Source: Betaproteobacteria bacterium
Lineage (GTDB): Bacteria > Pseudomonadota > Gammaproteobacteria > Burkholderiales > CAIKXV01
DNA length: 64,000 bases
Assembly (NCBI GenBank): GCA_947458265.1
Contig: CANGYF010000009.1
Coordinates: 66,544 to 130,543 of the forward strand
Direction: 5' to 3'
This document shows positions 24,724 to 38,225 of the stretch, one piece after another (position 1 is the first letter of the stretch; each line of letters starts with the position of its first letter). Both the position numbers and the translations under genes were made by a program. Below the pieces are notes generated by a model. That model was not told the origin of the DNA, ran no database searches, and saw only the letters and a list, made by a program, of their open reading frames with translations.

Positions 24724-26210
24724 TTCGCGCCCCCACGGCGCGCCGCCTGCAGCGTCGCCGCGAACTCGCGCAGCCCGGCCTGGAACGCGACAGGCTGGTA
24801 CTTCTCGTCGTCGGCCACCAGCGCGAGCAGCCGCCTGAGCCCGGGCCCGAGCTGGTCCGGCGCCACCGCCTTCTGCCGCGCAAGGAAGTCGCCAAGACTC
24901 TGCAGCGCGAACACCGCCTGTTCGGCACCGGCGTAGTCGGTGTACTGGCTGGCCAGCCCGTCGGCCACCAGGGCCTCCATCATCGCCTGCAGATCGGCGG
25001 CCGCGAAACGGTGGGCAGCGATGCGCGGCAACAGGCCGTCGATCGCCTCGTACACGGCACGCGCCTGCGCGATCGGGTCGCCGGCGCCGGCGATCGCCTG
25101 GTGCAGGCGGTCGATCTGCTTCGCCAGCGCGGCCCCGGCGTCGGCATCGACGCGACGCGCCACCAGCCGCAGCATCAGCAGGTTCGAGTCGTTCAGTCGC
25201 ACGATCCCGGGGCCGGCCTTGAGCCGGGCCGCGAGGTAGCGGTTGCCGCGCATCGACTGGTGGCACGCATGGCAGTCGAACAGCACCAGTTCCGGGAACA
25301 ACCCGTCGCGACCGCGCTGCGGGTGCAGGAAGATCGCCAGCTGCTCCTGCGAGGCCACCGCCTGGCCGATCGCCCAGGCACGCACGCCGTCCCACGTACC
25401 CTTGCGCTCGCGCCAGTCGGCGTCGATGCGGAAATGCGCCGGTCCGAGCAGGGTGAACGTGTCGAGCTCGAAGCTCATCCTCGGATGCCCGGCCGCCATG
25501 ATCCTGTGGGTGACCAGCTTCTGCGCGTTGCCGAAGTGACAGGACACGCACAGGCGTGCGCGGTCGATGTCGTTGCTGGTCGGGTACAGCCCGTGGGCGA
25601 TGTTGTCGCGGTGGCTCGCGCCGCTCTCGACGTGGCGCCGCAGCCAGCGCTCGGCCGGCCCGTGGCAGGACTCGCAGGTCACGCCCTCGGTGATCGAGAA
25701 CTCCGGTGCGCGGCGCGCCGCCGGCGCGTTGTGCGCGTGGCAGTCCAGGCATACCGCAGCGCGGTGCGCAGGTTCAGTCAGACCCATCCGCTTGACGATC
25801 GCCTGCGACTTGTCGCTGAGCAGCGTGCGATAGGCGCGCGCGTGGCGGTCGCTGCGCTGCCAGACATGGAACTCGGTCTGCAGCACGTTCGAGCCGGGCC
25901 ACGCCTCCGCCGAGCCGTGACACAGGCTGTTCGCGCAACTGGCCACGCCGAGCGTGCGCTCGGCCGCGTACTGGGGGAGCCCGCGGGCCGGGGCGGCGAC
26001 GCCCGGGACGGCTGCCACTGCACGGCCTGGCCCTGGCAGGCCACCCCACAGCGCACCCGCCACGATGCAGCCAACGATAGCCGCGGCGAACGCCAGGGCG
26101 AGCGCTCGGCTGCGGCGCGCGCCGGCAGGCAGCGCCTGTGCGCCGGGCTGTGCCGTGGTAGACGATGGTACGGGGACGGATCGACGCAATATGCGCACGG
26201 GGAACCTCAT
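24720..26210 (-). CDS. Multihaem c-type cytochrome (4 CxxCH plus 1 Cx4CH) with an N-terminal anchor/signal and a helical C-terminal domain
   Basis: Start at 26210 in an ATGA overlap with the upstream stop. Haem motifs: CANSLCH (Cx4CH), CLDCH, CESCH, CVSCH, CHACH. The N-terminal part looks cytochrome c554-like. Confidence 0.8.
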   Translation of the reverse strand: MRFPVRILRRSVPVPSSTTAQPGAQALPAGARRSRALALAFAAAIVGCIVAGALWGGLPGPGRAVAAVPGVAAPARGLPQYAAERTLGVASCANSLCHGSAEAWPGSNVLQTEFHVWQRSDRHARAYRTLLSDKSQAIVKRMGLTEPAHRAAVCLDCHAHNAPAARRAPEFSITEGVTCESCHGPAERWLRRHVESGASHRDNIAHGLYPTSNDIDRARLCVSCHFGNAQKLVTHRIMAAGHPRMSFELDTFTLLGPAHFRIDADWRERKGTWDGVRAWAIGQAVASQEQLAIFLHPQRGRDGLFPELVLFDCHACHQSMRGNRYLAARLKAGPGIVRLNDSNLLMLRLVARRVDADAGAALAKQIDRLHQAIAGAGDPIAQARAVYEAIDGLLPRIAAHRFAAADLQAMMEALVADGLASQYTDYAGAEQAVFALQSLGDFLARQKAVAPDQLGPGLRRLLALVADDEKYQPVAFQAGLREFAATLQAARRGGAK

Positions 26211-29200
26211 CGCCGGAACAGCGTGCGATCGACCTGGTCGCGCACGCGCCACGGATCGCCTTCAGGGCGCAGGTAGAGCCGTCGCTGCTCGGCCAGGTCG
26301 AGCGGGCGCGAGCCGATTCGGCCGAACACCGCCACCTGCCCGCCAGTCTCGTCGACCGCGCGGTCGCGCTCCAGCCCGCGCGACAGGGCAAGCGCAGGAC
26401 TGCGCGTGGGCCGCCAGGCAATCAGCTGCGGCCTGGGCTCCGGGCTGAAGCCGTAGAACTTCGGCTGCGTGTCCGGTGCAGTGAGCTGCACCACCTTCAG
26501 CCCGTTACGCCCGTCCGCGACGTATGCGAACAGCGACGCGTTGGTCGAGCCGACCACCACGTCGCGGGCGTCGTTCAACACACCGCCGGCAGTGAAGCGC
26601 TGGACCACCCGCGGCTGCTCCGGATTCTCGACGTCTACGATCACCAGCCCCTCGCGCCCGGCCGCGACATAGGCGTAGGTGCGCGCGACATACACGCGGT
26701 TGGCCTCTGCCATCGGCACGGTGGCGCCCTCGACGCGCCGCGGGCGCTTCACATCGGTGACATCGAGCACAACCAGCCCATCGCGCGCGGCGACGAACAG
26801 GTAGCGAAACTGCAGCGTCGCCGCGCGTGCGCCTTCGACCGGCACCACGGTGACCAGTTGCGGCTTGAGCGGGTCGTCGAGGTCGACCACCGCGATGCCG
26901 CGCTCGACGGCGACGTAGGCGTAGTGGCCGCCCATCGTGATATGCCGCGCGCCGCGCAGCGCACCGCCCGCGTCCCAGGTAAGTGCCCGGCGCAGGAAGT
27001 TGTTGCGCGGCTCGCCGTCCTGCAGCGTGTCCACGTTGACCACGATCAGGCCCTCGCGCGCATCGGAGATGAACGCGTAGTGGTAGATCGGGTGGAACGG
27101 CTGTTCCTGGTTGACCCGGCGCATCAGGTCGCCCTGGTTCTTGAACGGGGCCACCGGCTGGTTGGTGGGCAGCGCGACGCAGGTCGCCTCCGCCGAGCGC
27201 ACCCGCGTGTCCTGCCCGAGCGGCGAGAACGGCGCGCTGACGATGCGCTGCGAGAAGCCCTTGTTCGCGATCGAGGCGACGTCGTACACCACCATGCCGC
27301 CCGGGCCCTCGGCCGCGTAGAGGTATTCGCCACGCATTTGCAGGCACTCCACCCGGCCGCGGGTGCGCTGGTCGTGCGCCTCGCGCAGGCGCCTGCCTCG
27401 ATTGTCGTGCGCGGCGAACCAGTCCGGGTACGCGTAGCGGTGCAGGTAGCTGCCGATCACCGCCTGCGGCTCCTCCCACTCGGTGACCTGCACCGCCTCG
27501 ACATGGCGCTCGCTGCCGACCCACGCGTTGAAGCCGACGAAGTTCACGAAGCCAGTGCCGTGCAGCAGCAGCTGCGCCATGATGGCGTTGTTGTCGTTGG
27601 CGGCCGACAGGTGGCAATCGGTGCAGGTCTTGGTCTCGGTCTTGCGCTCGGTGTGCGCATAGTGCGGCGCGAACGCCTGGCTGGAGAAGCCGGCGGAGGA
27701 AACGGGCGGCTGCTGGATGTAGATGCGCTCGCGGTTGCTGTTGGTCGAGGACAGCAGCAGCGCCGAGCTGGAGCGGATCGGCACGATCTTGCCCTGCTTG
27801 ACCGGGCCGTGGCGGCCGAGCTGGAACACGTCGTCGCGCACCACCTGCGGGTTATAGGTGGCGTAGTTGCGCGTCGCACCACCCTCGTAGTGGAGGCGAT
27901 CGGTCTTCCAGTTCGCCTCGATCGGCAGGTGGCAGCCCGAGCAACTCGTCGTCCACGAGGTGTGGCAGGTCTGGCAGGCCATCTTGTCGTCGCCGTGCGC
28001 ACGCTCCTGCGCGGGCACGCCCGGCCCCCAGGACTGGCGATAGCTGTCGAAAGCGCCGCGCGCGGTGAGCTTGGACCGCGCCGCCTTCTCGTTGTAATTC
28101 CGGTGCCCGGGGGTGACGGTATCGCGCACCAGCGACATCTCCCACTCCAGCCCGGGGGTGAGGGTGGAGCGCTGGTAGAGCCGGCCGCCACGCCACTCGA
28201 AGCGCGCCCGCCCGTCGGGCACGCGCATCAGCGAGAGGTTGTTGCCGCCCGGGCGCGCCGCCGGGCCCGAGGTGAACAGCGTCGGGTAGCGGTCTGCGGT
28301 GCCGTGGCAGTCGGCGCACTCGATCTCGATCGCCGCCGCGACCTCGCCATAAATGTGGCCGTTGCCGTGGGCGTCCTGGGAGAAGTGGCAGTCCACGCAG
28401 TGCATGCCCACGTCGAGATGGATCGAGGACATGTGTACCGACTTGCTGAACTTCTTGGGGTCGTCGTCGGCGACGATGCGCCCGTCCTTGTCGAGCAGGT
28501 TGCCCCTGCGGTCGCGCTTGAAGACCGCGCGGAAGTTCCAGCCGTGGCCGTGGTAGTCGGCGAACTGGGTGTCCTTCAGCTTCGGGTTGAGGTCCCACAC
28601 CCGCTTCAGGAACTCGAGCGAGCCCCAGTTGCCGAGTACCGCCGCGCCCTCCGGGTTGCGGTCAAGGATGCGGCGGCGTTCGGTGTGCGACGGGTGGCGC
28701 TGCTTCTCGGGCCACATGAACGGCGCATCGGCCTCGTAGTCCCACATCGTGTAGCCGAAGAAACTGTTCACGAACACGTTCGGCTGGTGCATGTGGCACA
28801 CCATGCACTGCGAGGACGGAATCGCGCGGGTGAACTCATGCCGCAGCGGGTGGCCGCTGCGGTCGCGCGGGATCGTCGGATCGGCGCTTACGCTGGTGCC
28901 CGAGTGGCCGTGCTGTGCGTAGGGCCCGGAATGGCGCGGCTCGCGGTCGTTCGCGTAAACGACGTGGCAGCTCGCGCAGCCGGAGGAGCGGTAATCGCCC
29001 GGCTGGTCGTTGCTGCCGAGGAACCAGGTGAACGGGTCGTTCAACCGCGTCTTGGTGATGTTGATCAACGGCACCGCGATGCGCTGGCCGGTACCCGGGC
29101 CGCGCACCGACTGGCGGATATCCGGCCGCCCCGGCTCGTCCAATGTCTGCAGCCGGCCGAGCACGTTGGGCAGTCCGATCTCCGGGAACAGGCTCTGGAT

Positions 29201-29998
29201 CACCCGGCCGCCGCGCTCGAACACCCGGAACACGTCGCCCGGGGGCATCGTCTCCCAGGCCGGCAGCGGAAACAGCTGCGCGAGCACGCCCTTGGCGAGG
29301 AGGAAGGCATCGGGCTTGACCGGGTTGACAATGGTCGCGCCGATGCCGTCGCGGGTATAGGCCTCGCCGAACAAGCCGCGCTTGAACGCGAACTCCGGCG
29401 GCAGGACGCCGTTGTTGTAGGCCGCACCATTCCACAGCATCGCGCCAGTGGCCATCAGGCTGCGCTCGGCCGCCTGGATGATCGGCAGGTGGCAGGCACC
29501 GCAGGCTTCGCGCGCGACCCGGTAGTCCGACGGATTGGTGAAGCGGATGAACTCGGGGCTCTCGCGGTTGAGCAGGGTGTAGCTGCGCTCGGGCGTGGCC
29601 GAGGACGGGTAGTTCCACTCGTTCGCAAAGCGCGGCATCACGTGAGCGCGATCGAGCGCTGCACGGTAGTCGCGCATCCGGTCACCCCGGTAGTCCGAAC
29701 CTGTCGGCCGCTGCACCATCGCATCCCCGCCGTGGCAGTCGGTGCAGCCAAGAGCCACCGCCGGATTGCGATGCATGGTCGCATGGTCGGTGGCGGTGTG
29801 GCAGGACACGCAGCCGGCGGACTTGGAATACGCCTCGGCATGGGACTGCTTCGCCGGCGCGGGCGGCGCGCCGGTGAACATGATGTCCGGAGGGCTCACC
29901 GTCGGACGCGCGGTGAGGCTGCCCGCAGCCTGCGAGGCGGTCACGCCGCCGGCCAGGGCCACCGCGATGCCGACCCACAGCAGCGCCAGGGCAGCCAT
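26207..29998 (-). CDS. Decahaem c-type cytochrome fused to a C-terminal LVIVD-repeat (beta-propeller-like) domain, ~1263 aa, secreted
   Basis: Start MAALALLWVGIAVALAGGVTASQAAG (signal) at 29998. Ten CxxCH motifs: CVSCH, CTDCH, CGACH, CASCH, CMVCH, CVDCH, CADCH, CQTCH, CSGCH, CTDCH. Six LVIVD-like repeats: GMVVYDV, GLIVVNV, GIAVVDL, GLVVLDV, GLVIVDV, GLKVVQL. Confidence 0.85.
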   Translation of the reverse strand: MAALALLWVGIAVALAGGVTASQAAGSLTARPTVSPPDIMFTGAPPAPAKQSHAEAYSKSAGCVSCHTATDHATMHRNPAVALGCTDCHGGDAMVQRPTGSDYRGDRMRDYRAALDRAHVMPRFANEWNYPSSATPERSYTLLNRESPEFIRFTNPSDYRVAREACGACHLPIIQAAERSLMATGAMLWNGAAYNNGVLPPEFAFKRGLFGEAYTRDGIGATIVNPVKPDAFLLAKGVLAQLFPLPAWETMPPGDVFRVFERGGRVIQSLFPEIGLPNVLGRLQTLDEPGRPDIRQSVRGPGTGQRIAVPLINITKTRLNDPFTWFLGSNDQPGDYRSSGCASCHVVYANDREPRHSGPYAQHGHSGTSVSADPTIPRDRSGHPLRHEFTRAIPSSQCMVCHMHQPNVFVNSFFGYTMWDYEADAPFMWPEKQRHPSHTERRRILDRNPEGAAVLGNWGSLEFLKRVWDLNPKLKDTQFADYHGHGWNFRAVFKRDRRGNLLDKDGRIVADDDPKKFSKSVHMSSIHLDVGMHCVDCHFSQDAHGNGHIYGEVAAAIEIECADCHGTADRYPTLFTSGPAARPGGNNLSLMRVPDGRARFEWRGGRLYQRSTLTPGLEWEMSLVRDTVTPGHRNYNEKAARSKLTARGAFDSYRQSWGPGVPAQERAHGDDKMACQTCHTSWTTSCSGCHLPIEANWKTDRLHYEGGATRNYATYNPQVVRDDVFQLGRHGPVKQGKIVPIRSSSALLLSSTNSNRERIYIQQPPVSSAGFSSQAFAPHYAHTERKTETKTCTDCHLSAANDNNAIMAQLLLHGTGFVNFVGFNAWVGSERHVEAVQVTEWEEPQAVIGSYLHRYAYPDWFAAHDNRGRRLREAHDQRTRGRVECLQMRGEYLYAAEGPGGMVVYDVASIANKGFSQRIVSAPFSPLGQDTRVRSAEATCVALPTNQPVAPFKNQGDLMRRVNQEQPFHPIYHYAFISDAREGLIVVNVDTLQDGEPRNNFLRRALTWDAGGALRGARHITMGGHYAYVAVERGIAVVDLDDPLKPQLVTVVPVEGARAATLQFRYLFVAARDGLVVLDVTDVKRPRRVEGATVPMAEANRVYVARTYAYVAAGREGLVIVDVENPEQPRVVQRFTAGGVLNDARDVVVGSTNASLFAYVADGRNGLKVVQLTAPDTQPKFYGFSPEPRPQLIAWRPTRSPALALSRGLERDRAVDETGGQVAVFGRIGSRPLDLAEQRRLYLRPEGDPWRVRDQVDRTLFRR

Positions 29999-30077
29999 AC
30001 GCGATGCAAGCCCGGCAGGCCGGGCACCTGGCCTCTGGTTCACCGCTGCAGGGACGTGATTGGGCACCGTGGCGGCC

Positions 30078-32819
30078 TCAATAGGTGAGGATAAGGTTGG
30101 CGATGGCCGAGTACTGCCGGCTGTCGAGCGCATTGCCGTAGAGCTCGCGCAGGCCAGCCCCAGGGAACAGAACCGCGAGCGAGACGTTGATCACCACGTT
30201 CTGGATGAACAGCGGCCGGTACTGCACCGCCACCGATGCATCGTGGCCGATCATATTCGAATGCAGGCGCTGGTTACGCAGCGTCGCCAGCGACGACAGG
30301 TTGTCGAAAGCGAGCCGGTTGAGGTTGCCGATCAGCCGCACCTGCGGCGTGAGGTCCACGTCGGCACCGATGCCGATCAGGCGCAGCCCGGGGTTGGTGA
30401 AGTTCGCCTGGCCGTGCTCGCGCGAGGTGCGCAACGAAGCAAGCAGGCCGTTGCGCATCGACAGCGTGGTACCGCCCCCGCCCACCAGCGGCACCGCCTG
30501 GCGGATCCAGTAGCTGGTATCGGCGCCGGCGAACAGCGGGTTCTCCAGCACCGCGTCGAAGCCCTGCGCCTTCGCATCGAAAGGGTTGCGGTCGCCGGAG
30601 GCGTAGAGCGCGCTGGTGCGCAGCCGGATCCAGGAGAAGTCGCGCGAGACTTCGGCCGCGCCGAACCGTGCTTCGACCCGCTCGGGCTGGCCTGAGAGCT
30701 GGCCGCGGCTCACGTTACCGCTCGCCAGGTAGCCCGACAGGGACAGGTTCCAGCGGTTGTAGTGGCCGTCAGCGTTGAGGCCCAGCCAGGTAACGTCGTA
30801 GTCGTAGGGCCGACCCGAGCCGAACACCGCCGGCCGCTCGAGGAAGCCGTTGCCGTTGAAGAAGCGCGGGTTCGATCCCTCGCGGTTGCTGTTGCGCAGG
30901 ATGGTCCCCTGGGTGGTCACCCCAAGCACCGGGAAGTCCTGCCGGTAAAGATTGAACACGAACACGTCATCGTCGCGGGGGCGCTGCAGGATGTCGTTCA
31001 ACCCGCTGTTGGTGTCTTTCTCGAAGCGGCGGAACCACGCGAGGTTGTACTGGTACTGGTTATTGTCGCGGGTGCCGAACAGGCGAACCCCGAACGGCTG
31101 GTCGACGAACAGGAAACCGCGGAAATCGGAGGTGAACGGCTGCACGCCGACGCGCAGGCTGTCGAAGTCGTAGCGCTCGGACACGTCGCGCAGGTGCTTG
31201 TCGAAGAACAACTCCTGGAAGCCGACAAAGCCGTCGTTGCGGTTCGGACCGCTCACCGGGTCGATGTTGGTCAGCCGCACCTCTTCGGTCATCGTGCGGT
31301 TGAAGTTGACCACCGGCACGATCCGGTACTCGTAGTCGGGCGGCCGGAACACGGTGTTGCCCTTGATCAGGCCAAAGTTGAGGATGAGGGTCTGCGCGAA
31401 GGTCGCCTGGCGGCCGTTGCCAAACGAGCCCAGCGCACCGGGGCGCAGGGCGGACTGCGACCCGACCGGCACAGGCAGGCTGCGCGACTCGTAGAGCGAG
31501 TCCGAGATCGCGCTCACGTTGACGAACCACTCTGGCCCGAGCAGGTCCTCGAACACCGGCAGGTCGCCGCGCAGAGGGTTCGGGTTGTACGGATCCCATC
31601 GGTTGTACGGCAGCACGCCCAGTGCCTGCACGATGCGCCAGCGATCACGCACCGGGATCGAATCGCGCGGCGCCGACGGCGCGGGGCGGGCAGCCTGCGT
31701 CGGGTCGATCAGTGCGCGCCGCGGTTCGAGCGCACCGGCACCACCAGTCGGGCGACGCCGCTCGAGCGCGAGCGCCACTGGCGGGAGGTCTGGGCCACCC
31801 TGCGCCGGCGCGACACCGGGGCGCAGTGCCTCAGCCAGCCCGGCGGCGGACGCCGCGTCCGGGGCGGCTGGCTCGAGCGGCCCTCCGAGGTCGACCGGCT
31901 CCAGCGCCTGCCCGCTGCGCCGGCGGTCCACCGCCAGAACGTCCGCAGCGCCCTCGCGCCGCTGCCGTACCCAGGCCTGGTCGCCGTTGGCCCGCTGCAC
32001 GCGATACCAGTCGCCGAGGCGGCGGTCAGCCACCAGCAGCACGCCGATCTCCACCTGCGCCACGACCTCGGCGTCATCGGCCGCACGCGCCTGAAGTGCG
32101 AGCAGCGGCACCATCACCTGCAGCAGGAACGGCGCATCCTCGGGCGCTGGCAACGGTGCCGCCGGCACCGGGGCCGCTGCCGCGGCCACCGCCGAGGTCA
32201 CCCCCAGCGCGCGCGCATCCACCCAGCCGCGGCTGCGCGTCGCCGCCTTGCCTTGGCGCTCGACCTGCACCCAACTGCCTTCGCGCTGCGACGCCTGCAG
32301 CGGCTCGCCCACGACCAACCGGTCCAGTACACGGAAGCGCTCGCCGGCACCGGCGCGCAGGAGCGCCGGCTGCATCGCCTGCACCTCGACAGCCACCGCG
32401 CCAGGCAGCTCCGGGGGCAGCGCGACCAGCGCCGCCTCGCCGGTAGCGGGCGGGCCCGCCGCCGGAGCCTTTGCCCGGAGGCTACCGGGCGCAGGCCCTG
32501 AAGGCGTGGCTGCCACCCGCAAGCCGTCGGCAAACACCCAGCCCTGGGTGGCGCGACCGTCCTGCAGCCGTACCTGTGCCCAGCGGCCCTGCCGCTGCAT
32601 CACCACCGCCGGCACACCAGGCGCCCAGCCCGCGGTCTCGGGAGCGTCCTCCGAAGGTCGCTCGCGCAGCGGGGTCGGGCGCTCCACCCGCACCCGCTCG
32701 CTGGTGCCAGCCGGCGGCTGCGGCTGCGGCTGCGTCCAGGCTGGCGGCGCAACGAGCACCGCCCCGGCCAACGCAGCCGCAGCGGCAAGGCGCACGTGCT
32801 CAGAGGCCGTCGCAGACAT
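30078..32819 (-). CDS. Outer-membrane protein: signal peptide, three SH3b-like repeats and a ~560-aa predicted beta-barrel
   Basis: Start MSATASEHVRLAAAAALAGAVLV at 32819 (alternative GTG at 32795). The SH3b-like segments end in GWVFADGLRV, GWVDARALGV and AWVRQRREG. The C-terminal half has alternating amphipathic segments and ends ...AIANLILTY (terminal aromatic residue). Confidence 0.6.
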   Translation of the reverse strand: MSATASEHVRLAAAAALAGAVLVAPPAWTQPQPQPPAGTSERVRVERPTPLRERPSEDAPETAGWAPGVPAVVMQRQGRWAQVRLQDGRATQGWVFADGLRVAATPSGPAPGSLRAKAPAAGPPATGEAALVALPPELPGAVAVEVQAMQPALLRAGAGERFRVLDRLVVGEPLQASQREGSWVQVERQGKAATRSRGWVDARALGVTSAVAAAAAPVPAAPLPAPEDAPFLLQVMVPLLALQARAADDAEVVAQVEIGVLLVADRRLGDWYRVQRANGDQAWVRQRREGAADVLAVDRRRSGQALEPVDLGGPLEPAAPDAASAAGLAEALRPGVAPAQGGPDLPPVALALERRRPTGGAGALEPRRALIDPTQAARPAPSAPRDSIPVRDRWRIVQALGVLPYNRWDPYNPNPLRGDLPVFEDLLGPEWFVNVSAISDSLYESRSLPVPVGSQSALRPGALGSFGNGRQATFAQTLILNFGLIKGNTVFRPPDYEYRIVPVVNFNRTMTEEVRLTNIDPVSGPNRNDGFVGFQELFFDKHLRDVSERYDFDSLRVGVQPFTSDFRGFLFVDQPFGVRLFGTRDNNQYQYNLAWFRRFEKDTNSGLNDILQRPRDDDVFVFNLYRQDFPVLGVTTQGTILRNSNREGSNPRFFNGNGFLERPAVFGSGRPYDYDVTWLGLNADGHYNRWNLSLSGYLASGNVSRGQLSGQPERVEARFGAAEVSRDFSWIRLRTSALYASGDRNPFDAKAQGFDAVLENPLFAGADTSYWIRQAVPLVGGGGTTLSMRNGLLASLRTSREHGQANFTNPGLRLIGIGADVDLTPQVRLIGNLNRLAFDNLSSLATLRNQRLHSNMIGHDASVAVQYRPLFIQNVVINVSLAVLFPGAGLRELYGNALDSRQYSAIANLILTY

Positions 32820-34695
32820 TGGTGGCACTGGTGTCGAGGAACGGGGCGACCGGACACTGCACGTAGCGCAGGCGGGTGCCGGCGGCGCCGGGGACGATGG
32901 TGTCGGCGCGGATGCCCGCTGGCGCATTACCGATGCCGGTGGCGAGCCGAGTGCCGGCATTGGCCACGCCGAGGAAGGCGATCATGTCGTCCTGGTCCAC
33001 GCCGTCGCCGGAAATGCCGATCGCGCCTACCAGCGCCGCGCCACGGTAGATGGGCACGCTGCCGGGGAAGATCTGGATGCCGTTCTGCGCGCGCGGCAGG
33101 CCGGTACAACCGACCACGGCCGAGCCAGTCGCCGCGGCGACGATGTTGTTGAAAGACAGGTCGAGCTGCAGGCCGACGGTGAACGGACTCCACTGCGCGA
33201 ACGGCTTCGACAGCGGGCCGCTGGCCGAGCCGTTGATCCCATCGGGGAAGAACGGGCGAGCCAGGTTGCCGACCGCGCGGTTGCTGTAGGCGACGCCGTC
33301 GGACAGCGCCGCCGGATTGGCAACGAAGGCTCGCAACTGCGTGACATACGCCCCGATCGGCGAGGCCGGGTTGGGCGCGAGATAGGCGGCATCGGGCAGC
33401 GCCGCAAGGTCGGTCGCGGTGTTCGGATGCGAGAACAGCAGCGCGGTGCGCGCCTTCTGCAGCGACACATCGGTGCCGAATACCGGTGCATCGGCGGTGC
33501 GTACCAGCCCGAGCACCTCGCCGGCGGTGTCCACGATCGAGATCGTCACCTGCGCCGGCGAGCCGAGCGGGCGGCGGATCTGTGCGCGGGTGCGGTTGGC
33601 CACCCTTAGCGCCTCGGCAAGCAGCGCGACCACCTCCGCCTGGGCGAGCAGCCCGTCGGTGCCGGCACGCGGCGCGAAGCGATTGGCGTTGGCGCCGTCG
33701 ACCAGCACATAGGCACCCAGCGCCGCCAGCTCGGGCTGCGTGTCGGGCCGGTAGCCAGAGGCCGGCGTGCCGTAGGCCTCGCCGGCCACGAGCGCGGCGG
33801 CGGCGTAGCCGGCCACCGCCACCAGCGTGCCGGCGGTGCCGTTGATGCTGGCGAAGGCAGGCGCGGCGGCGGGGTTGGACAACAGCGCCTCGGAGTCGAC
33901 GAAGCGCAGGGTGCGCCCGTCAGCGGTGATCCGGTCGGCGCGCCGGTCAGCCGGCGCGGCGAAGCCGCTCGACCCAGCCACCGCGATCAGCTCGTCCAGG
34001 GCGGCGTCGACGTCATTGATGTCGAGGTCGATGCCGTAGGTGCCATCGGCGATCACGCCGATGCCACCGACCACCGTACCGTTCTTGTACAGCGGCAGGC
34101 CGCCGGGATCGGCGGCAAGCCCGAGCGGCGAGCGCTTGGGGCCGATGCTGCCGTCGGCCTGCCGGCGCATCAGGTCGGAGCAGGACAGCTGCGAGAACTG
34201 CACGCCGAACAGCGGGCCGCCCGGCTGGCCGGTCTCGCCCGGGTTGAAGTTCTGCTGCACGATCTGGCCGGCGGTGCGGGTGGTGAACGCATTGCCCTCG
34301 GATGACAGGTAGGCGCCGGTGAGTGCCTTGCTGATCGCAGCGAAGGTCGCCGGCAGCACGTTCACGCCTTCCAGCCCGCCGGAGACGCCACGCCCGCCGG
34401 AGATGTTGAACGTGGCGGCCGCGCCGCCCATGCTGAACACTGCCAGCACGTTGCCCACGCGGTCGACCACGGCGATGGTGGCGCTGGCGCCGCGCGCCTG
34501 CGCCTCGGCCACCGCCTGGCTCAGGATGCGCCCGACCTCGGCAGTGCTCAATGCGGTGGGCGTGGCGAAGCAGCCGCCCGTGCAGCCGCCGGAGGCACCC
34601 GGCGTGCCGCCGTCACCACCGCCACCGCCGCCACAGCCGGCGAGCAGGACAAACAGCAGCACAGACAGCATCCGACGTAGACCGGTCGCACTCAT
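32800..34695 (-). CDS. Lipoprotein with two tandem GlcG/HbpS-like (DUF336, haem-binding/'haem-degrading') domains
   Basis: Start MSATGLRRMLSVLLFVLLAGCGGGGGG (lipobox LAGC) at 34695 in an ATGA overlap with the upstream stop. Domain 1: ATIAVVDRVGNVLAVFSM...GGLPLYKNGTVVGGIGV. Domain 2: ISIVDTAGEVLGLVRT...SLQKARTALLFS...VPIYRGAALVGAIGISGDGVDQDD. Confidence 0.7.
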   Translation of the reverse strand: MSATGLRRMLSVLLFVLLAGCGGGGGGDGGTPGASGGCTGGCFATPTALSTAEVGRILSQAVAEAQARGASATIAVVDRVGNVLAVFSMGGAAATFNISGGRGVSGGLEGVNVLPATFAAISKALTGAYLSSEGNAFTTRTAGQIVQQNFNPGETGQPGGPLFGVQFSQLSCSDLMRRQADGSIGPKRSPLGLAADPGGLPLYKNGTVVGGIGVIADGTYGIDLDINDVDAALDELIAVAGSSGFAAPADRRADRITADGRTLRFVDSEALLSNPAAAPAFASINGTAGTLVAVAGYAAAALVAGEAYGTPASGYRPDTQPELAALGAYVLVDGANANRFAPRAGTDGLLAQAEVVALLAEALRVANRTRAQIRRPLGSPAQVTISIVDTAGEVLGLVRTADAPVFGTDVSLQKARTALLFSHPNTATDLAALPDAAYLAPNPASPIGAYVTQLRAFVANPAALSDGVAYSNRAVGNLARPFFPDGINGSASGPLSKPFAQWSPFTVGLQLDLSFNNIVAAATGSAVVGCTGLPRAQNGIQIFPGSVPIYRGAALVGAIGISGDGVDQDDMIAFLGVANAGTRLATGIGNAPAGIRADTIVPGAAGTRLRYVQCPVAPFLDTSATNVCDGL

Positions 34696-36428
34696 CGGTG
34701 AACTCCCTTCGCGCGCAGCGCCGCCAGCACCTCTGCCGCCGCGCTCTCGCGGGTGCCGTGGAAACCGTGGCACAGCGCGCACTCGGACCGTACCTTGCCC
34801 TTCTCCGCACGCGCGCCCACATGGCACTCGCGGCATTCGCGCACGCCAGGCATCGCCACATCGGCGGCACTGCGCGAGCGCTCGACCTGGTGGCAGTCCC
34901 CGCACTTGGCCGTCGCATGGCTCGCATGCGTGAAGCTTGAGTACGGCATCCACGCCTGCGTGACCCGCACAGGCGCGACGTCCCAGCGCGTGGGCCCGCC
35001 AGCCGGATCGCGCGCGCGCAGCACCTCGTGGCATGTGGAACACACCGCGCGCGTCTCGAACAGCTCGCGCAGCGCCAGCTCGGCGCGGCGGTCGGCCGAG
35101 CCAAGCGACGCAGAACGCTCCAGCGGCGTGGAGTCGGCGCCCGGCCGGGCGCGCGCCGTCGCACGTTCCTCGGTCAGCGTGCCGGCGTAGAGGTGGCGCG
35201 CGTAGTAGTCGCGCAGCATCGGCAGCATCGCCTCGACCCTGCCGTGCGGCACCTGCCGCGTCGCCCCCGGCTCGAAGGTGAGGGCGTGGCAGGACTGGCA
35301 GTGTCGCTCCATGGTGACCGGCGCGAAGCGCCGCCCGTCGCGTTCCGGTTCGTGACAGCTCGCGCACTCGAGGACCTCGCGCCGCTGCGGCCCGCGGATG
35401 CCTTTCGCATCAAGGTGGATCTCGTGGTTGAACTTCAGGTTGGAGCGCTCGCGCGGCGGCGGGACGTCATTCAGGCGCACGCGGCGCACCTGCGGCGGCT
35501 CGCCCGGGTCGAGCAGCGACAGCCGGAACTCCGGATGGTCGCGCGCGAAGTCGACCACCTTGCCCGACTGTGCCTGCCCGGCCGTGCGGCGGATATCGCG
35601 ATGGCAGTCGGCACAGAACGCCTGCGAGAACGGCTGCGCCTGCGGGCCCTTGTGGTCGCGATGGCACTCGGCGCAGCGGGTCGCAGCGAAGCGCTCTCCA
35701 TCCGGGCCGGTGAGTTCAGGGTGCGGCACGTGGTCGCGGATGCCCTTGTGGCACTCGAGGCAGGCGCGGTCACGCACCTGTACGAACGGCAACTCGTGGC
35801 AGGCGCGGCACTCGAAGGCCGCGGCCTGGTGCGCGTTCATGAGCGGGCCCGGGTCCCATGACTGCTGCATGCGATCCGCCCCCTCCCGCAAGCGCTGCGC
35901 GTCGGCGGCCGAGGGCGTACCGACCCAGGCCGCCGCGATCCCGCCGGGGCCGAACAGGTCGGGCGCGGCAGGCAGCAGCAGGAACGGCACCAGGATGCCG
36001 AAGAACATCAGGTAGGACAGCGTCCGGCGCCACGATCTCGCCGGCGGCAGCAGCACCTGCTGCGCCTCGCGGCCAGCGTCGGCGGCCAGCCGCGACGAGG
36101 GCTCGATACGCAGCGCGAGCGCGGCGGCGTCGGGCGGCGGATCGACGGTGATGCGAAACGGCCCGATGTCGATACGGTCGCCGGGCACGATACGCTGCGC
36201 ATTGACCACCCGGCCGTTGACCTCGAGCTCGCCGGAGAGGCTGGCGATCGTCGCCTCGTCCCCCGATACCGTGATGCGCGCATGCTCGAGCAGCACGCGC
36301 GGATCGGGCAGGTGCACCTGGCAGCCGGTACCGCGCCCCACCAACAGCACCGCCCCGGCGACACGGCGCGCGACACGCACCGGCTGGCCGTGTCGTCCGG
36401 GGGTGACGTAGGTGAGCTGGGTCTCCAT
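34692..36428 (-). CDS. FHA-like domain, single TM helix and periplasmic decahaem cytochrome c
   Basis: The N-terminus LLVGRGTGCQVHLPDPRVLLEHARITV...LEVNGRVV...GDRIDIGPFRITV is FHA-like. TM helix: LSYLMFFGILVPFLLLPAAP. Ten CxxCH motifs: CRACH, CLECH, CAECH, CADCH, CASCH, CQSCH, CSTCH, CGDCH, CRECH, CALCH. Confidence 0.8.
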   Translation of the reverse strand: METQLTYVTPGRHGQPVRVARRVAGAVLLVGRGTGCQVHLPDPRVLLEHARITVSGDEATIASLSGELEVNGRVVNAQRIVPGDRIDIGPFRITVDPPPDAAALALRIEPSSRLAADAGREAQQVLLPPARSWRRTLSYLMFFGILVPFLLLPAAPDLFGPGGIAAAWVGTPSAADAQRLREGADRMQQSWDPGPLMNAHQAAAFECRACHELPFVQVRDRACLECHKGIRDHVPHPELTGPDGERFAATRCAECHRDHKGPQAQPFSQAFCADCHRDIRRTAGQAQSGKVVDFARDHPEFRLSLLDPGEPPQVRRVRLNDVPPPRERSNLKFNHEIHLDAKGIRGPQRREVLECASCHEPERDGRRFAPVTMERHCQSCHALTFEPGATRQVPHGRVEAMLPMLRDYYARHLYAGTLTEERATARARPGADSTPLERSASLGSADRRAELALRELFETRAVCSTCHEVLRARDPAGGPTRWDVAPVRVTQAWMPYSSFTHASHATAKCGDCHQVERSRSAADVAMPGVRECRECHVGARAEKGKVRSECALCHGFHGTRESAAAEVLAALRAKGVHR

Positions 36429-36434
36429 CGCCGG

Positions 36435-37289
36435 CTACCAGAAGTAGAACACCGACACCACGTGCGCAATCAGCGCAGCGATGGCACCGAAGGACAGCGG
36501 CACGTGCAACAACAGCCATACCCGCATCGCCGCGCGCAGCTGCAGGTCGCGGCGCGCGCGCGCCAGCAGTTCGCGCTTGCGCACCATCGCCGCGAGCAGC
36601 CGCTCGCCCAGTCGTACCTGCTCTGTCGAGAGCTTCGGCGCGAGTGCGGCGGGCAACCGGGTACAGGCCTCGCGCGTGGGGCAGCGCACGCGCTCGCCGC
36701 GCAGCTCGCGCAGCAGCCCGCCGCCCACGCGCGACTGGCGCGCCCGCATCACCAGCGCGTTGACCTCATCGGGCAGGTTCATCGCCAGCGCCTCGCACTC
36801 GCGGTCGATCTCGCCGACCTTCAGGACGAGCGTGTCGATGGTGTCGTCGCCGAGGTTGGCGGTCACCAGCGCCGGGTAACGCAGGTAGACGAGCACCCCG
36901 TACACGCCGCTCGCCGATACCGCCAGAACCAGTACCCAGGCGAGCGTATGTACGTTCCAGCCCAGTTCGAAGCCGGCGTGCAGGGTGGCAACCACCAGGA
37001 CGGCACCGCCGAGGTACACGTGAGCGGAGGTCCAGCCCTGCACGGTGCCGAGTCTGGAGCCGTAGCGACGCTTGCGGATGCCCAGCAGCATCAGCCACAG
37101 CATCAGCAGCGCGGCGATAGTGCCCAGCGTGTAGCCAAGCCAGGTGCCGCCGTAGTGCTTGGGGTAGCGCGGCGTCGGGTCGATCCAGAGATACGCGACC
37201 GTGGCAACCACGACCAGACACAGCGCCAGCTTCAGATAGCGGGCGCGCCGGTACTCGAGCAGCGACTGGTGGTGGCGCGAGGCGAGCAT
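36435..37289 (-). CDS. Integral membrane protein (5 predicted TM helices) with two H-x13-H helices; putative di-haem b-type transmembrane electron carrier
   Basis: TM3 is SAHVYLGGAVLVVATLHAGF and TM5 is LLLHVPLSFGAIAALIAHVV. Each has two His exactly 13 residues apart. ATG at 37289 is preferred; the longest ORF starts at 37361. The stop lies 6 nt before the FHA-cytochrome start. Confidence 0.6.
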   Translation of the reverse strand: MLASRHHQSLLEYRRARYLKLALCLVVVATVAYLWIDPTPRYPKHYGGTWLGYTLGTIAALLMLWLMLLGIRKRRYGSRLGTVQGWTSAHVYLGGAVLVVATLHAGFELGWNVHTLAWVLVLAVSASGVYGVLVYLRYPALVTANLGDDTIDTLVLKVGEIDRECEALAMNLPDEVNALVMRARQSRVGGGLLRELRGERVRCPTREACTRLPAALAPKLSTEQVRLGERLLAAMVRKRELLARARRDLQLRAAMRVWLLLHVPLSFGAIAALIAHVVSVFYFW

Positions 37290-37412
37290 TTTTCGCACGG
37301 GTGACCGCTTCGACGGCGACGCGGCTGCAACCCAGCATGACGACATCAAGCGGACGATCATACTCGATCAATATGACAGGCCAGAAGGCCGCGCGAAGGC
37401 CCCCGAGGGCGC

Positions 37413-38225
37413 TCAGCGCGATGGCCTGGCAGCCGTCGCCGCTTCGAGCGGGGCCACCGGGGTGCATCCGGGGCATCCCGGCAGGGCGAACTCGAACATG
37501 CCAGGCGCGCGCTCGACGCCCGTCTCGCGCAGCAGCGGCAGCAACTGCTCGCGCACCCCCGGCGCCACCGACGCGCGCAGGTACGCCTGCTCCAGCCGCG
37601 CCTCCCGCCACGCAGCCTCCCCCGCCAGTTCGAGGTCCCCTCCGCGCGTGACCAGCCGCGCACGCGCCGAACCACCGTGCGCATCGACCTCGATCCGGTA
37701 ATCGCCGAGGACGATACCCGGCAGGTGGCGCGACCGCGCTTCGGACCAGTCGATACTCGCCTGCACCCGCCAGCCGCCGCGCTCGTGCGCGAGCGCCTGC
37801 ACCTGGAGCCGCGGCCGCCCGGCCAACGCGAGCGCCGCGGTATGCGGCCACAGCGCCACCAGCGCTTCAGCCGGGAGTGCCAGCTCGAACGGTGCTGCGG
37901 TCAGCGTGCCCACGCCCAGTTCGACCGCGACGTCCCGCGCGTCGAGCTGCAGGACGAGCGCCAGCACCGGGCGCAGGCCCGGCAGCGGGCGTACGCGCCA
38001 TTGCACTGGCCAGGAAGCGATCGGGACACCCGCGGGCGAGCGCCACTGCAGTCGGCCCGCGCCGTGCCAGAGGCCACCGCGCGCCTCCAGCAGCCGCAGC
38101 TGACCGGCAGAACGCGTGGCCAGCGCGCGATCGAGCCAGGTGGCCGGCGCGAGCAGGACCAGGGCCAGCGCCAGCACGACGATGGCGCAGCCCGCGCGCA
38201 GCAGCAGGCGATCCACGGTCAGCAA
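37413..38225 (-). CDS. gspN: Type II secretion system protein N
   Basis: 270 aa with an N-terminal TM helix, then LEARGGLWHGAGRLQW, typical of GspN. It is the last gene of the gspG-N string. Confidence 0.75.
   Translation of the reverse strand: MLTVDRLLLRAGCAIVVLALALVLLAPATWLDRALATRSAGQLRLLEARGGLWHGAGRLQWRSPAGVPIASWPVQWRVRPLPGLRPVLALVLQLDARDVAVELGVGTLTAAPFELALPAEALVALWPHTAALALAGRPRLQVQALAHERGGWRVQASIDWSEARSRHLPGIVLGDYRIEVDAHGGSARARLVTRGGDLELAGEAAWREARLEQAYLRASVAPGVREQLLPLLRETGVERAPGMFEFALPGCPGCTPVAPLEAATAARPSR

Follow-up and report, generated by a model that had tools for sequence, protein, structure and literature searches.

The gene that follows gspN in the window (the whole 64,000-nucleotide stretch of DNA analysed here) probably encodes a five-helix inner-membrane cytochrome b that holds two haems and spans the membrane as one of the three subunits of a redox module. 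We call the protein IMP, after the class described by He et al. 2017 (Front Microbiol 8:1584, PMC5566968): proteins of ~300 aa, annotated as hypothetical, with five transmembrane (TM) segments, W-x3-H-x13-H on both TM3 and TM5, and SGxxG on TM4. The bis-haem prediction is itself not new: He et al. inferred two b-haems from HX13H, by an argument from the ferric-reductase domain and cytochrome b, and proposed a quinone-reactive cytochrome b in exchange with the quinone pool (PMC5566968). Our protein has the features of that class (five TM segments, 284 or 308 aa, W-x3-H-x13-H twice, and SGxxG) and also its context: the IMP gene has a multihaem cytochrome gene (G2) next to it in 75 of 75 loci and an Fe-S protein gene (G7) in 49 of 67, both of which belong to the same operon here. 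The triad listed for Gallionella ES-2 in their Supplementary Table 6 (an MHC of 544 aa with 9 haems, an IMP of 308 aa and a redox protein of 796 aa; PMC5566968) matches in size G2 (578 aa, 10 motifs), IMP (284 or 308 aa) and G7 (~800 aa). IMP therefore appears to be a new member of this predicted kind, matched by motifs, sizes and context rather than by their sequences.

The start codon, which the preliminary description had left ambiguous between 37289 and 37361, is more likely the one at 37289: homologues are ~285 aa long, the first residues are a conserved HQS motif, and a protein in ENA that is 99% identical to IMP is annotated with 284 aa. The 308-aa version was rejected, as its 24-aa extension is without conservation. 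A good Shine-Dalgarno sequence was found at neither start, nor was any promoter or terminator consensus found in the 123 nt between gspN and the IMP gene, which lie on the same strand. That IMP is the first gene of its operon, as had been proposed, agrees with the betaproteobacterial arrangement but is not general, for the flavo-FeS gene leads in the majority of loci from Alpha- and Gammaproteobacteria.

The coordinates of the gene, its motifs and its neighbours are collected in Table 1. In G2, a cytoplasmic FHA domain is followed by a single TM helix and then by the periplasmic cytochrome c part, and the protein weakly matches TmcA (E 8.6e-8). Its 10 haem motifs in 578 aa correspond to 58 aa per haem, and those of G5 (10 in 1308 aa) to 131 aa per haem. 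The C-terminal part of G4 is probably an outer-membrane barrel. G7, at the operon end 12 kb downstream of the IMP gene, combines a TrxR/YpdA-like module, which lacks CxxC but has Rossmann motifs for both FAD and NAD(P)H, with two cNMP-binding domains. Its C-terminal module carries four [4Fe-4S]-type Cys groups (CxxCxxCxxxC), G7 matches Fer4_11 (PF13247), and no signal peptide was found in it.

Table 1. The IMP gene, its sequence features and the surrounding genes in the window.
Feature	Position	Strand	Description
gspN	37413..38225	-	Last gene of type II secretion operon; precedes IMP gene by 123 nt
Alternative IMP start	37361	-	Upstream ATG; 308 aa
IMP	36435..37289	-	Predicted di-haem-b inner-membrane protein, 284 aa; start backed by ~285-aa homologues
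IMP TM3, residues 83-106	36972..37043	-	W86-x3-H90-x13-H104; hydropathy, AlphaFold2; codons H90 37020-37022, H104 36978-36980
IMP H114	36948..36950	-	Fifth near-invariant His (124/127 representatives); GWNxHT motif, periplasmic start of TM4
IMP SGxxG on TM4	36897..36911	-	S127-G128-V-Y-G131; G128 invariant, G131 at least 90% conserved
IMP TM4-TM5 insert, residues ~147-250	36540..36851	-	Cytoplasmic, charged, helical; hydropathy and AlphaFold2
IMP TM5, residues 251-282	36444..36539	-	W258-x3-H262-x13-H276; hydropathy, AlphaFold2; codons H262 36504-36506, H276 36462-36464
G2	34692..36428	-	FHA domain, TM (137-155), cytochrome c with 10 CxxCH, 578 aa; start 6 nt past IMP stop
G3	32800..34695	-	Lipoprotein, lipobox LLAGC, HbpS-like (PF03928) stretches; start overlaps G2 stop (ATGA)
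G4	30078..32819	-	Secreted, bacterial SH3 domains, large C-terminal part ending ...ANLILTY; longest ORF to 32960
G5	26207..30133	-	Cytochrome c, 10 CxxCH, C-terminal LVIVD repeats (beta-propeller); alternative start 29998
G6	24720..26210	-	Cytochrome c554-like, 4 CxxCH + 1 CxxxxCH; start overlaps G5 stop (ATGA)
G7	22318..24723	-	Cytoplasmic, ~800 aa; TrxR/YpdA-like FAD + NAD(P)H module, cNMP domains, Cys module

Translation of 36435-37289 (minus strand) gives SAH90-VYLGGAVLVVATL-H104 in TM3 and LLLH262-VPLSFGAIAALIA-H276 in TM5, with exactly 13 residues between the histidines of each helix, which confirms the pattern that first drew attention to this gene. Taken alone, the H-x13-H pattern is only suggestive: two such pairs arise by chance in 1.3% of shuffles of the IMP sequence. 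We regard it as real because the histidines are conserved, a point on which the preliminary description had made its reading depend. H90, H104, H262 and H276 are invariant in 26 close homologues and likewise in 100 diverse ones, for which the mean column identity is 32% and only 8 columns are invariant. Across 127 cluster representatives, H90 and H104 are each found in all 127 and H262 and H276 each in 121, the exceptions at the latter two positions being mostly gaps. Among the 100 diverse homologues, conservation of W86 and of W258 is at least 90%. An FeS cluster or other cofactor on the insert between TM4 and TM5 was considered and rejected, as the cysteines there are poorly conserved (C165 in 32/127, C203 in 37/127).

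Hydropathy gives five TM segments, to which long helices correspond in the AlphaFold2 model. The successive loops along the chain contain 4, 2, 5, 0, 23 and 0 K/R residues, implying an N-in topology by the positive-inside rule. Because of this topology TM3 and TM5 should run parallel, and the same rule predicts H90 and H262 to lie near the cytoplasmic face and H104 and H276 near the periplasmic face. The charged helical insert of ~100 aa that had been described between TM4 and TM5 is present: AlphaFold2 places helices at residues 151-169, 174-183, 192-200 and 204-216, and a further one at 222-282 that continues into TM5. When the loop is bounded by the hydropathy scan (residues 130-256), it holds 23 K/R and 16 D/E. 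Built on the diverse alignment, the model has a pLDDT of 95 and a pTM of 0.86, with long TM3, TM4 and TM5; it supersedes an earlier run with the 26 close homologues, in which the membrane part was poor (pLDDT 72.5). Two mean-field DCA attempts on the family (Meff 134-200) were too noisy, with gap and end artefacts dominating, and yielded a single weak TM3-TM5 pair, 102-273.

The family comprises 2892 clusters at 50% identity, annotated only as hypothetical, and the module occurs in at least 598 species genomes. Many of the hosts are aerobic heterotrophs (Sphingomonadales, Erythrobacteraceae, Lysobacterales, Burkholderiales), and cultured hosts include Aurantiacibacter marinus KCTC 23554, Rhizorhapis suberifaciens DSM 7465, Sphingomonas colocasiae JCM 31229 and Arenicella sp. 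4NH20-0111. Searched against Pfam and NCBIfam, IMP itself gave noise only and no match, and PF01292 did not match even at E <= 1. None of the profile families suggested at the outset thus claims the query, but its homologues weakly reach PF01292, DUF4405 and Ferric_reduct (PF01794), which we take to be members of the Pfam di-haem cytochrome clan. PF01292 matched 25 of the 26 close homologues (best E 6.7e-8) and, at E <= 1e-3, 29 of the 100 diverse members; three of five members scanned singly passed its cut-off of 30.1 bits (P0057 with 33.0, P0006 with 31.9, P0064 with 31.2). DUF4405 matched 13 of the 26, and Ferric_reduct matched 6 of them weakly, its best score of 19.8 bits (E 8.8e-4, P0003) falling below the 28-bit gathering threshold. 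The PF01292 matches span TM1-TM3, and the alignment probably does not place the ligands of that family on H90/H104; for these reasons we treat them as weak evidence of homology.

Comparisons with solved structures added little. Profile searches of PDB sequences from the close, the diverse and the TM1-TM4-only alignments returned nothing relevant, only coiled coils and designed helical bundles, and a search from a single homologue returned nothing. Foldseek, run with the pLDDT-95 model, found no match in the PDB at E <= 0.001; the top entries, sensor domains of TorS and McpS, were generic helical bundles, and STEAP1 ranked only 25th with a TM-score of 0.2. The hhalign alignments of the family profile to E. 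coli MsrQ, FdnI and YodB, each taken as one sequence, fell short of significance; that to FdnI pairs H262 with H155 and H276 with H169.

The gene neighbourhood is strongly conserved. The synteny behind the counts given above, in which G2 comes immediately after the IMP gene and G7 immediately before it on the same strand, spans Alpha-, Beta- and Gammaproteobacteria. In Aurantiacibacter marinus the stop codon of G7 and the start codon of IMP overlap (ATGA), and in a Magnetococcus MAG the two are joined in one G7-IMP polypeptide of 1110 aa (MEO5345780.1) in which both HX13H helices are present, a fusion that fits a cytoplasmic N-terminus for IMP. As a rule, translation of IMP is coupled to that of the cytoplasmic flavo-FeS protein. 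The constant presence of G2, this coupling and the one fusion speak for the membrane link that the preliminary description drew between the flavo-FeS protein and the periplasmic cytochromes, and from the synteny and the fusion it is plausible that IMP transfers electrons without quinones. The bis-haem-b reading on which the link depends likewise gains from the invariant histidines, the positive-inside topology and the ever-adjoining G2, although the query is without a Pfam match and its haems are predicted ones.

For this module we infer haem binding, contacts between subunits, the direction and final acceptor of the electron flow, and no dependence on quinones. With its N-terminus in the cytoplasm and TM3 and TM5 parallel, IMP would hold an inner haem between H90 and H262, near the cytoplasmic face, and an outer haem between H104 and H276, near the periplasmic face and four helical turns (~20 A) away, with room for the porphyrins provided by small residues (G56, G94 and S127-G128-x-x-G131). 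The helical insert, together with the extensions of TM4 and TM5, would dock G7 on the cytoplasmic side, where G7 is predicted to hold four [4Fe-4S] clusters as a wire, besides FAD, a site for NAD(P)H and two domains that sense cNMP. On the other side, the decahaem domain of G2, kept alongside by the TM helix of that protein, would take up electrons from the outer haem, and from there they would reach G3-G6 (the HbpS-like lipoprotein, the SH3/outer-membrane protein, the LVIVD decahaem protein and the c554-like cytochrome). The direction is most likely outward: NAD(P)H to FAD, FeS, haem b, haem b, c-haems and finally a periplasmic or extracellular acceptor. By reasoning, we rejected inward flow to NAD(P)+, for which electrons would have to climb in redox potential and also work against the membrane potential. 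The arrangement would amount to a split analogue of NOX/FRE and could bypass the quinone pool. Only tentatively, and with less than even confidence, we suggest that G7-IMP-G2 is a regulated, quinone-independent "split NOX" that delivers electrons by way of G2 to an outer-membrane or extracellular acceptor and whose flux is gated by cyclic nucleotides, through the cNMP domains of G7, and by phospho-threonine signalling, through the FHA domain of G2.

IMP could instead be a quinol dehydrogenase or quinone reductase, a quinone-reactive di-haem cytochrome b that joins the Q-pool to G2 in a role like that of CymA, CbcL and ImcH, or of FdnI and HyaC, with G7 accessory or regulatory. We consider this unlikely, but there are points in its favour: PF01292 is the only profile similarity that we count, and its characterised members FdnI, HyaC and CybB react with quinones; G7 does not adjoin the IMP gene in this window; and this is the model drawn by He et al. 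2017 in proposing exchange with the quinone pool (PMC5566968). The coupling of G7 to the IMP gene in most loci, with the ATGA overlap in one genome and the fusion in another, argues against it, as does the nature of G7, since an NAD(P)H flavoprotein with a four-cluster FeS wire is the expected donor to a haem on the cytoplasmic side, and no quinone-site motif was identified in IMP. The two models are not exclusive.

FdnI, HyaC and CybB also give the best profile similarity (up to 33 bits for homologues, with the query below every threshold), and they resemble IMP as we picture it in being di-haem b membrane subunits fed by a four-cluster FeS subunit (FdnH to FdnI). They have four TM segments with a 1+1+2 distribution of histidines (H18, H57, H155 and H169 in FdnI), have a periplasmic FeS partner and reduce quinones, whereas in IMP the candidate ligands are distributed 2+2 on TM3 and TM5 of five helices and the FeS partner is cytoplasmic. 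The transmembrane redox complexes of sulfate reducers, TmcABCD, HmcABCDEF and DsrMKJOP, offer a different likeness, a periplasmic multihaem cytochrome c combined with a membrane di-haem b and a cytoplasmic Fe-S protein. Their b subunits, however, are NarI-like (PF02665), a family that gave no match here; HdrD/CCG proteins take the cytoplasmic place that an NAD(P)H flavoprotein has in this module; and their electrons run inward, to sulfite reduction.

We think it highly unlikely that IMP is a NOX-like oxygen reductase, in which the outer haem, with a conserved pocket formed by N112 and H114, would convert O2 to periplasmic superoxide, leaving the cytochromes as secondary partners or as a sink. 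The histidine pattern on TM3 and TM5 is indeed that of the ferric-reductase domain, to which the weak PF01794 matches also point; the fifth conserved histidine lies beside the position of the outer haem, where NOX5 has a His/Arg pocket for O2; and aerobic heterotrophs such as Sphingomonadales and Erythrobacteraceae are frequent among the hosts. The presence of the membrane-anchored decahaem G2 beside the IMP gene in all 75 loci, however, argues that the physiological acceptor is c-haem, not O2. As a carrier of electrons from G7 to G2, the reading we prefer, IMP still has much in common with the PF01794 proteins (NOX/FRE/STEAP and MsrQ): the His pairs lie on parallel TM3 and TM5, two stacked b-haems that move electrons across the membrane from a cytoplasmic NAD(P)H-flavin module are predicted for IMP likewise, and in the one MAG dehydrogenase and membrane domain form a single chain, as they do in NOX. 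It differs in having five TM segments rather than six (and a best homologue score of 19.8 against 28 bits), in the 100-aa cytoplasmic insert between TM4 and TM5, in a putative donor that is normally a separate polypeptide with cNMP domains and a wire of four FeS clusters, and in the proposed acceptor, a decahaem cytochrome in place of O2, Fe(III) or MsrP.

The least probable reading makes IMP a non-haem protein whose conserved histidines serve a metal ion, transport or signalling (for example, as a sensor that cooperates with the FHA and cNMP domains): the FHA and cNMP-binding domains of the partners do suggest signalling, PDB searches gave no solved homologue and haem binding is a prediction, but two i/i+14 His pairs on parallel TM helices, accompanied by conserved Gly/Ser packing positions and flanked by Trp and Arg, agree with bis-His haem b sites, redox functions are predicted for the partners (10 + 10 + 5 c-haem motifs, FAD, 4 FeS clusters), and the weak profile matches all fall in di-haem families.

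He et al. (PMC5566968) find their IMPs in clusters labelled PCC3 and PCC4 and in MHC-IMP-redox-protein clusters; the operon as a whole is not PCC3 and differs from PCC4 as described. PCC3 has periplasmic and extracellular MHCs with medians of 21 and 34 haems at 22-39 aa per haem, and we rejected membership in it on haem density, which is wrong for both G2 (58) and G5 (131). PCC4 is described with 4, 5 and 10 haems, and, compared by that description, the counts here differ. A likely outer-membrane protein is present in this cluster, whereas the Table 6 clusters are without one. The FHA domain on a cytochrome, the cNMP domains, the LVIVD decahaem protein and the HbpS-like lipoprotein are all found here and are unmentioned by He et al.

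Beyond Shewanella and Geobacter, most pathways of extracellular electron transfer are least understood at the step where electrons cross the inner membrane, and the IMP family is a candidate for it: a large family without a Pfam or NCBIfam model or a solved relative, set inside a highly conserved module with a flavo-FeS protein that is cytoplasmic and predicted to use NAD(P)H. Should the coupling indeed be direct, cytoplasmic reducing equivalents would be exported without quinones, much as by eukaryotic NOX/FRE, with a bearing on iron acquisition, on the cycling of Mn and Fe, and on bacterial extracellular superoxide. Should the "split NOX" reading also be true, the module would represent a widespread and unrecognised export route for reducing power, which might serve, for example, iron or manganese reduction, the formation of extracellular superoxide, or redox detoxification.

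The predicted di-haem-b inner-membrane protein (hereafter IMP) is encoded by a minus-strand ORF at 36435-37361, in which initiation at the ATG at 37289 gives 284 aa. Upon translation, the two H-x13-H helices claimed in the preliminary description proved exact: 13 residues separate the His both in the third transmembrane helix (TM3; ...GW86TSAH90-VYLGGAVLVVATL-H104AGF...) and in the fifth (TM5; ...VW258LLLH262-VPLSFGAIAALIA-H276VV...). Since two i/i+14 pairs also arose in 1.3% of shuffles of this sequence, which contains 8 His, the pattern by itself is only suggestive. The start had been left ambiguous between 37289 and 37361; we favour 37289, because most relatives (among the best 120 of >3000) are ~285 aa long and an ENA protein 99% identical to IMP is called at 284 aa. 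The additional 24 aa that a start at 37361 would give are not conserved among 26 close homologues, and no convincing ribosome-binding site precedes either start.

A homologue search covering 5.8 billion proteins returned >3000 relatives, and every source-named one in the best 120 is a "hypothetical protein". A profile run exhaustively against 1.84 billion cluster representatives hit 2892 clusters at E <= 1e-3, of which 287 reached E <= 1e-30. The four candidate ligands are well kept: H90, H104, H262 and H276 are invariant across the 26 close homologues and also in an alignment of 100 diverse sequences (mean column identity 32%), where only eight columns are invariant, the others being G56, R74, G128 and P139. 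Among 127 representatives, H90 and H104 are each present in 127, and H262 and H276 each in 121, with mostly gaps in the exceptions. W86, W258, G94, G131, N112 and H114 are >=90% conserved. H114, a fifth His outside both pairs, is near-invariant (124/127), as is N112; it adjoins the predicted outer haem position, where it could be a hydrogen-bond partner of a haem propionate, touch a haem of the downstream cytochrome G2, or belong to a small-molecule site like that of NOX5.

Hydropathy delineates five TM segments (18-36, 53-71, 89-107, 111-129 and 257-275), and the successive loops carry 4, 2, 5, 0, 23 and 0 Lys/Arg. Read with the positive-inside rule, these charges place the N-terminus in the cytoplasm, together with the TM2-TM3 loop and the long TM4-TM5 loop. 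TM3 and TM5 would thus run parallel from inside to outside; H90 and H262 are predicted to lie roughly a turn in from the cytoplasmic face, and H104 and H276 close to the periplasmic one. AlphaFold2 given the 26 close sequences modelled the membrane part poorly (pLDDT 72.5); given 100 diverse sequences, it reached a pLDDT of 95.0 and a pTM of 0.86, with all five models at 94-95. The charged helical insert of ~100 aa described between TM4 and TM5 is seen in the AlphaFold2 model at residues ~147-250, as four short helices plus a cytoplasmic extension of the TM5 helix.

The profile searches that had been suggested gave a divided answer. The IMP query itself matches no Pfam or NCBIfam model, but its close homologues weakly match PF01292 (prokaryotic cytochrome b561 / Ni-hydrogenase cytochrome b; 25/26, best E 6.7e-8), DUF4405 (13/26, across the TM3 His-pair helix) and Ferric_reduct (6/26, across TM2-TM3), all of which belong to Pfam's di-haem cytochrome clan. 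PF01292 is matched above its gathering score (30.1 bits) by 3 of 5 individually scanned homologues and at E <= 1e-3 by 29 of 100 diverse family members; the alignments span TM1-TM3 of the homologues and probably do not superpose the PF01292 ligands on H90 and H104. We read these matches as hinting at remote kinship rather than membership. No related solved structure was detectable by sequence-profile searches. Parallel TM3 and TM5 carry two His each; this 2+2 placement, which is not the 1+1+2 pattern of FdnI and HyaC, is shared with the ferric-reductase domain and with helices B and D of cytochrome b.

Within the window the IMP gene does come first in the operon, as initially described: it heads seven minus-strand genes that overlap or lie <=6 nt apart, with two ATGA overlaps. 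A type II secretion system (T2SS) operon ends 123 nt upstream, and this gap contains no promoter or terminator consensus.

Features of the IMP operon and its upstream neighbour (window positions)
Feature	Position	Strand	Description
IMP	36435-37289	-	five-helix membrane protein, two HX13H helices
H114 codon of IMP	36948-36950		motif G110-W-N112-x-H114-T (GWNxHT), periplasmic start of TM4
G2	34692-36428	-	FHA domain in the cytoplasm, a single TM helix, 10 CxxCH in the periplasmic domain
G3	32800-34695	-	lipoprotein, HbpS-like domains (PF03928, haem-binding/degrading family)
G4	30078-32819	-	SH3 domains and probable outer-membrane barrel
G5	26207-30133	-	10 CxxCH and LVIVD propeller
G6	24720-26210	-	cytochrome c554-like, 4 CxxCH and 1 CxxxxCH
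G7	22318-24723	-	TrxR/YpdA-like FAD and NAD(P)H module without CxxC; two cNMP-binding domains; four [4Fe-4S]-type Cys groups
T2SS operon (gspK, L, M, N and others)	37413-38225 (gspN) and upstream to ~43000	-	same strand as IMP

A gspN-like gene also lies upstream of IMP in two further betaproteobacterial MAG loci. In Shewanella, the T2SS puts outer-membrane cytochromes onto the cell surface, and by analogy it might export G5 here. G5 (1308 aa, propeller repeats C-terminal) is 53-78% identical to its homologues across classes (one outlier, 40%), higher than for IMP, and partially matches ExtM, a cytochrome of the Geobacter selenite/tellurite-reduction ext cluster (E 2.9e-20, far under the cut-off). 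G4 has ~550 aa without a family match past its bacterial SH3 domains, and its C-terminus (...ANLILTY) resembles an outer-membrane beta-signal; G3 and G4 accompany the redox genes in most loci. The phospho-Thr-binding FHA domain of G2 is N-terminal, ahead of the TM anchor, and this FHA-TM-multihaem layout recurs in an Aurantiacibacter marinus homologue. G7 lacks a signal peptide. At 68.6% G+C, the window has very long spurious ORFs opposite real genes or in their alternative frames (e.g., 26165-30088 (+), 1307 aa, antisense to G5), and only ORFs with GC3 > 0.8 behave like genes.

Synteny was sampled at 80 loci of >=598 matches in GTDB species genomes (Burkholderiales, Lysobacterales, Arenicella, Steroidobacteraceae, Sphingomonadales and Erythrobacteraceae). 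Wherever a locus had enough sequence, G2 immediately followed the IMP gene (75/75 loci). G7 was the immediate upstream neighbour, on the IMP strand, in 49/67; the remainder mostly have the betaproteobacterial arrangement of the window, with G7 last. The G7 stop and IMP start form an ATGA overlap in A. marinus, and in a Magnetococcus sp. YQC-9 MAG the two proteins are a single 1110-aa polypeptide (MEO5345780.1, its sole annotation being "cyclic nucleotide-binding domain-containing protein") that retains both HX13H helices and carries the G7 part at the cytoplasmic N-terminus of the IMP part. A similar merged gene call was reported in Oceanospirillum beijerinckii (He et al., 2017; PMC5566968).

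The evidence best supports a model of a three-part transmembrane redox module, in which electrons would pass from G7 in the cytoplasm through the two b-haems of IMP to the ten c-haems of G2 in the periplasm, and G3-G6 would prolong the path towards the outer membrane. G7's four-cluster FeS module resembles FdnH, HybA, NrfC and HydN. Formate dehydrogenase-N uses a module of this type to supply a di-haem b subunit; G7 and IMP would follow the same logic but on the cytoplasmic face, where G7 would probably dock onto the insert and the TM4 and TM5 extensions. Transfer outward from NAD(P)H descends in redox potential with the membrane potential helping, whereas transfer inward to NAD(P)+ has to work against both; by reasoning, we therefore favour electron export. 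The cNMP domains of G7 and the FHA domain of G2 suggest regulation, and two signalling inputs would be unusual for an electron conduit of respiratory type. Electron transfer without quinones, as originally envisaged, is plausible. Its main rival, that IMP is a quinone-reactive cytochrome b, is the model of He et al. (2017; PMC5566968), and we consider it rather unlikely.

The same authors described "IMPs" in the cytochrome gene clusters PCC3 and PCC4 as proteins of ~300 aa with five TM helices, in which TM3 and TM5 each bear WX3HX13H and TM4 bears SGXXG; they likened them to cytochrome b and the ferric-reductase domain and predicted a pair of b-haems (PMC5566968). The window IMP has every one of these motifs. 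Their Supplementary Table 6 lists triads of multihaem cytochrome (MHC), IMP and redox protein; in Gallionella capsiferriformans ES-2, consecutive genes encode an MHC (544 aa, 9 haems), an IMP (308 aa) and a redox protein (796 aa) (PMC5566968), the architecture of G2, IMP and G7. We rejected a PCC3 identity for the window cluster, as the haem density is wrong; it resembles PCC4 in part only. In later Gallionellaceae papers the PCC3 inner-membrane protein is still unannotated, and in one it responds transcriptionally during iron oxidation. Literature searches found no biochemical work on IMP-type proteins.

The two-b-haem prediction for this class is thus not new. What we add is the depth of conservation, a confident predicted fold, the near-invariant H114, the coupling, universal in the loci sampled, to an FHA-anchored decahaem cytochrome, and the frequent translational coupling with the NAD(P)H flavo-FeS protein G7, plus one fusion. 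IMP is a further member of a published, uncharacterised protein class, and in silico evidence strongly supports its predicted role in carrying electrons across the membrane through two b-haems. The part of this interpretation that merits testing is its reading as a split NOX, in which G7, IMP and G2 would together carry out regulated, quinone-independent export of electrons from NAD(P)H.
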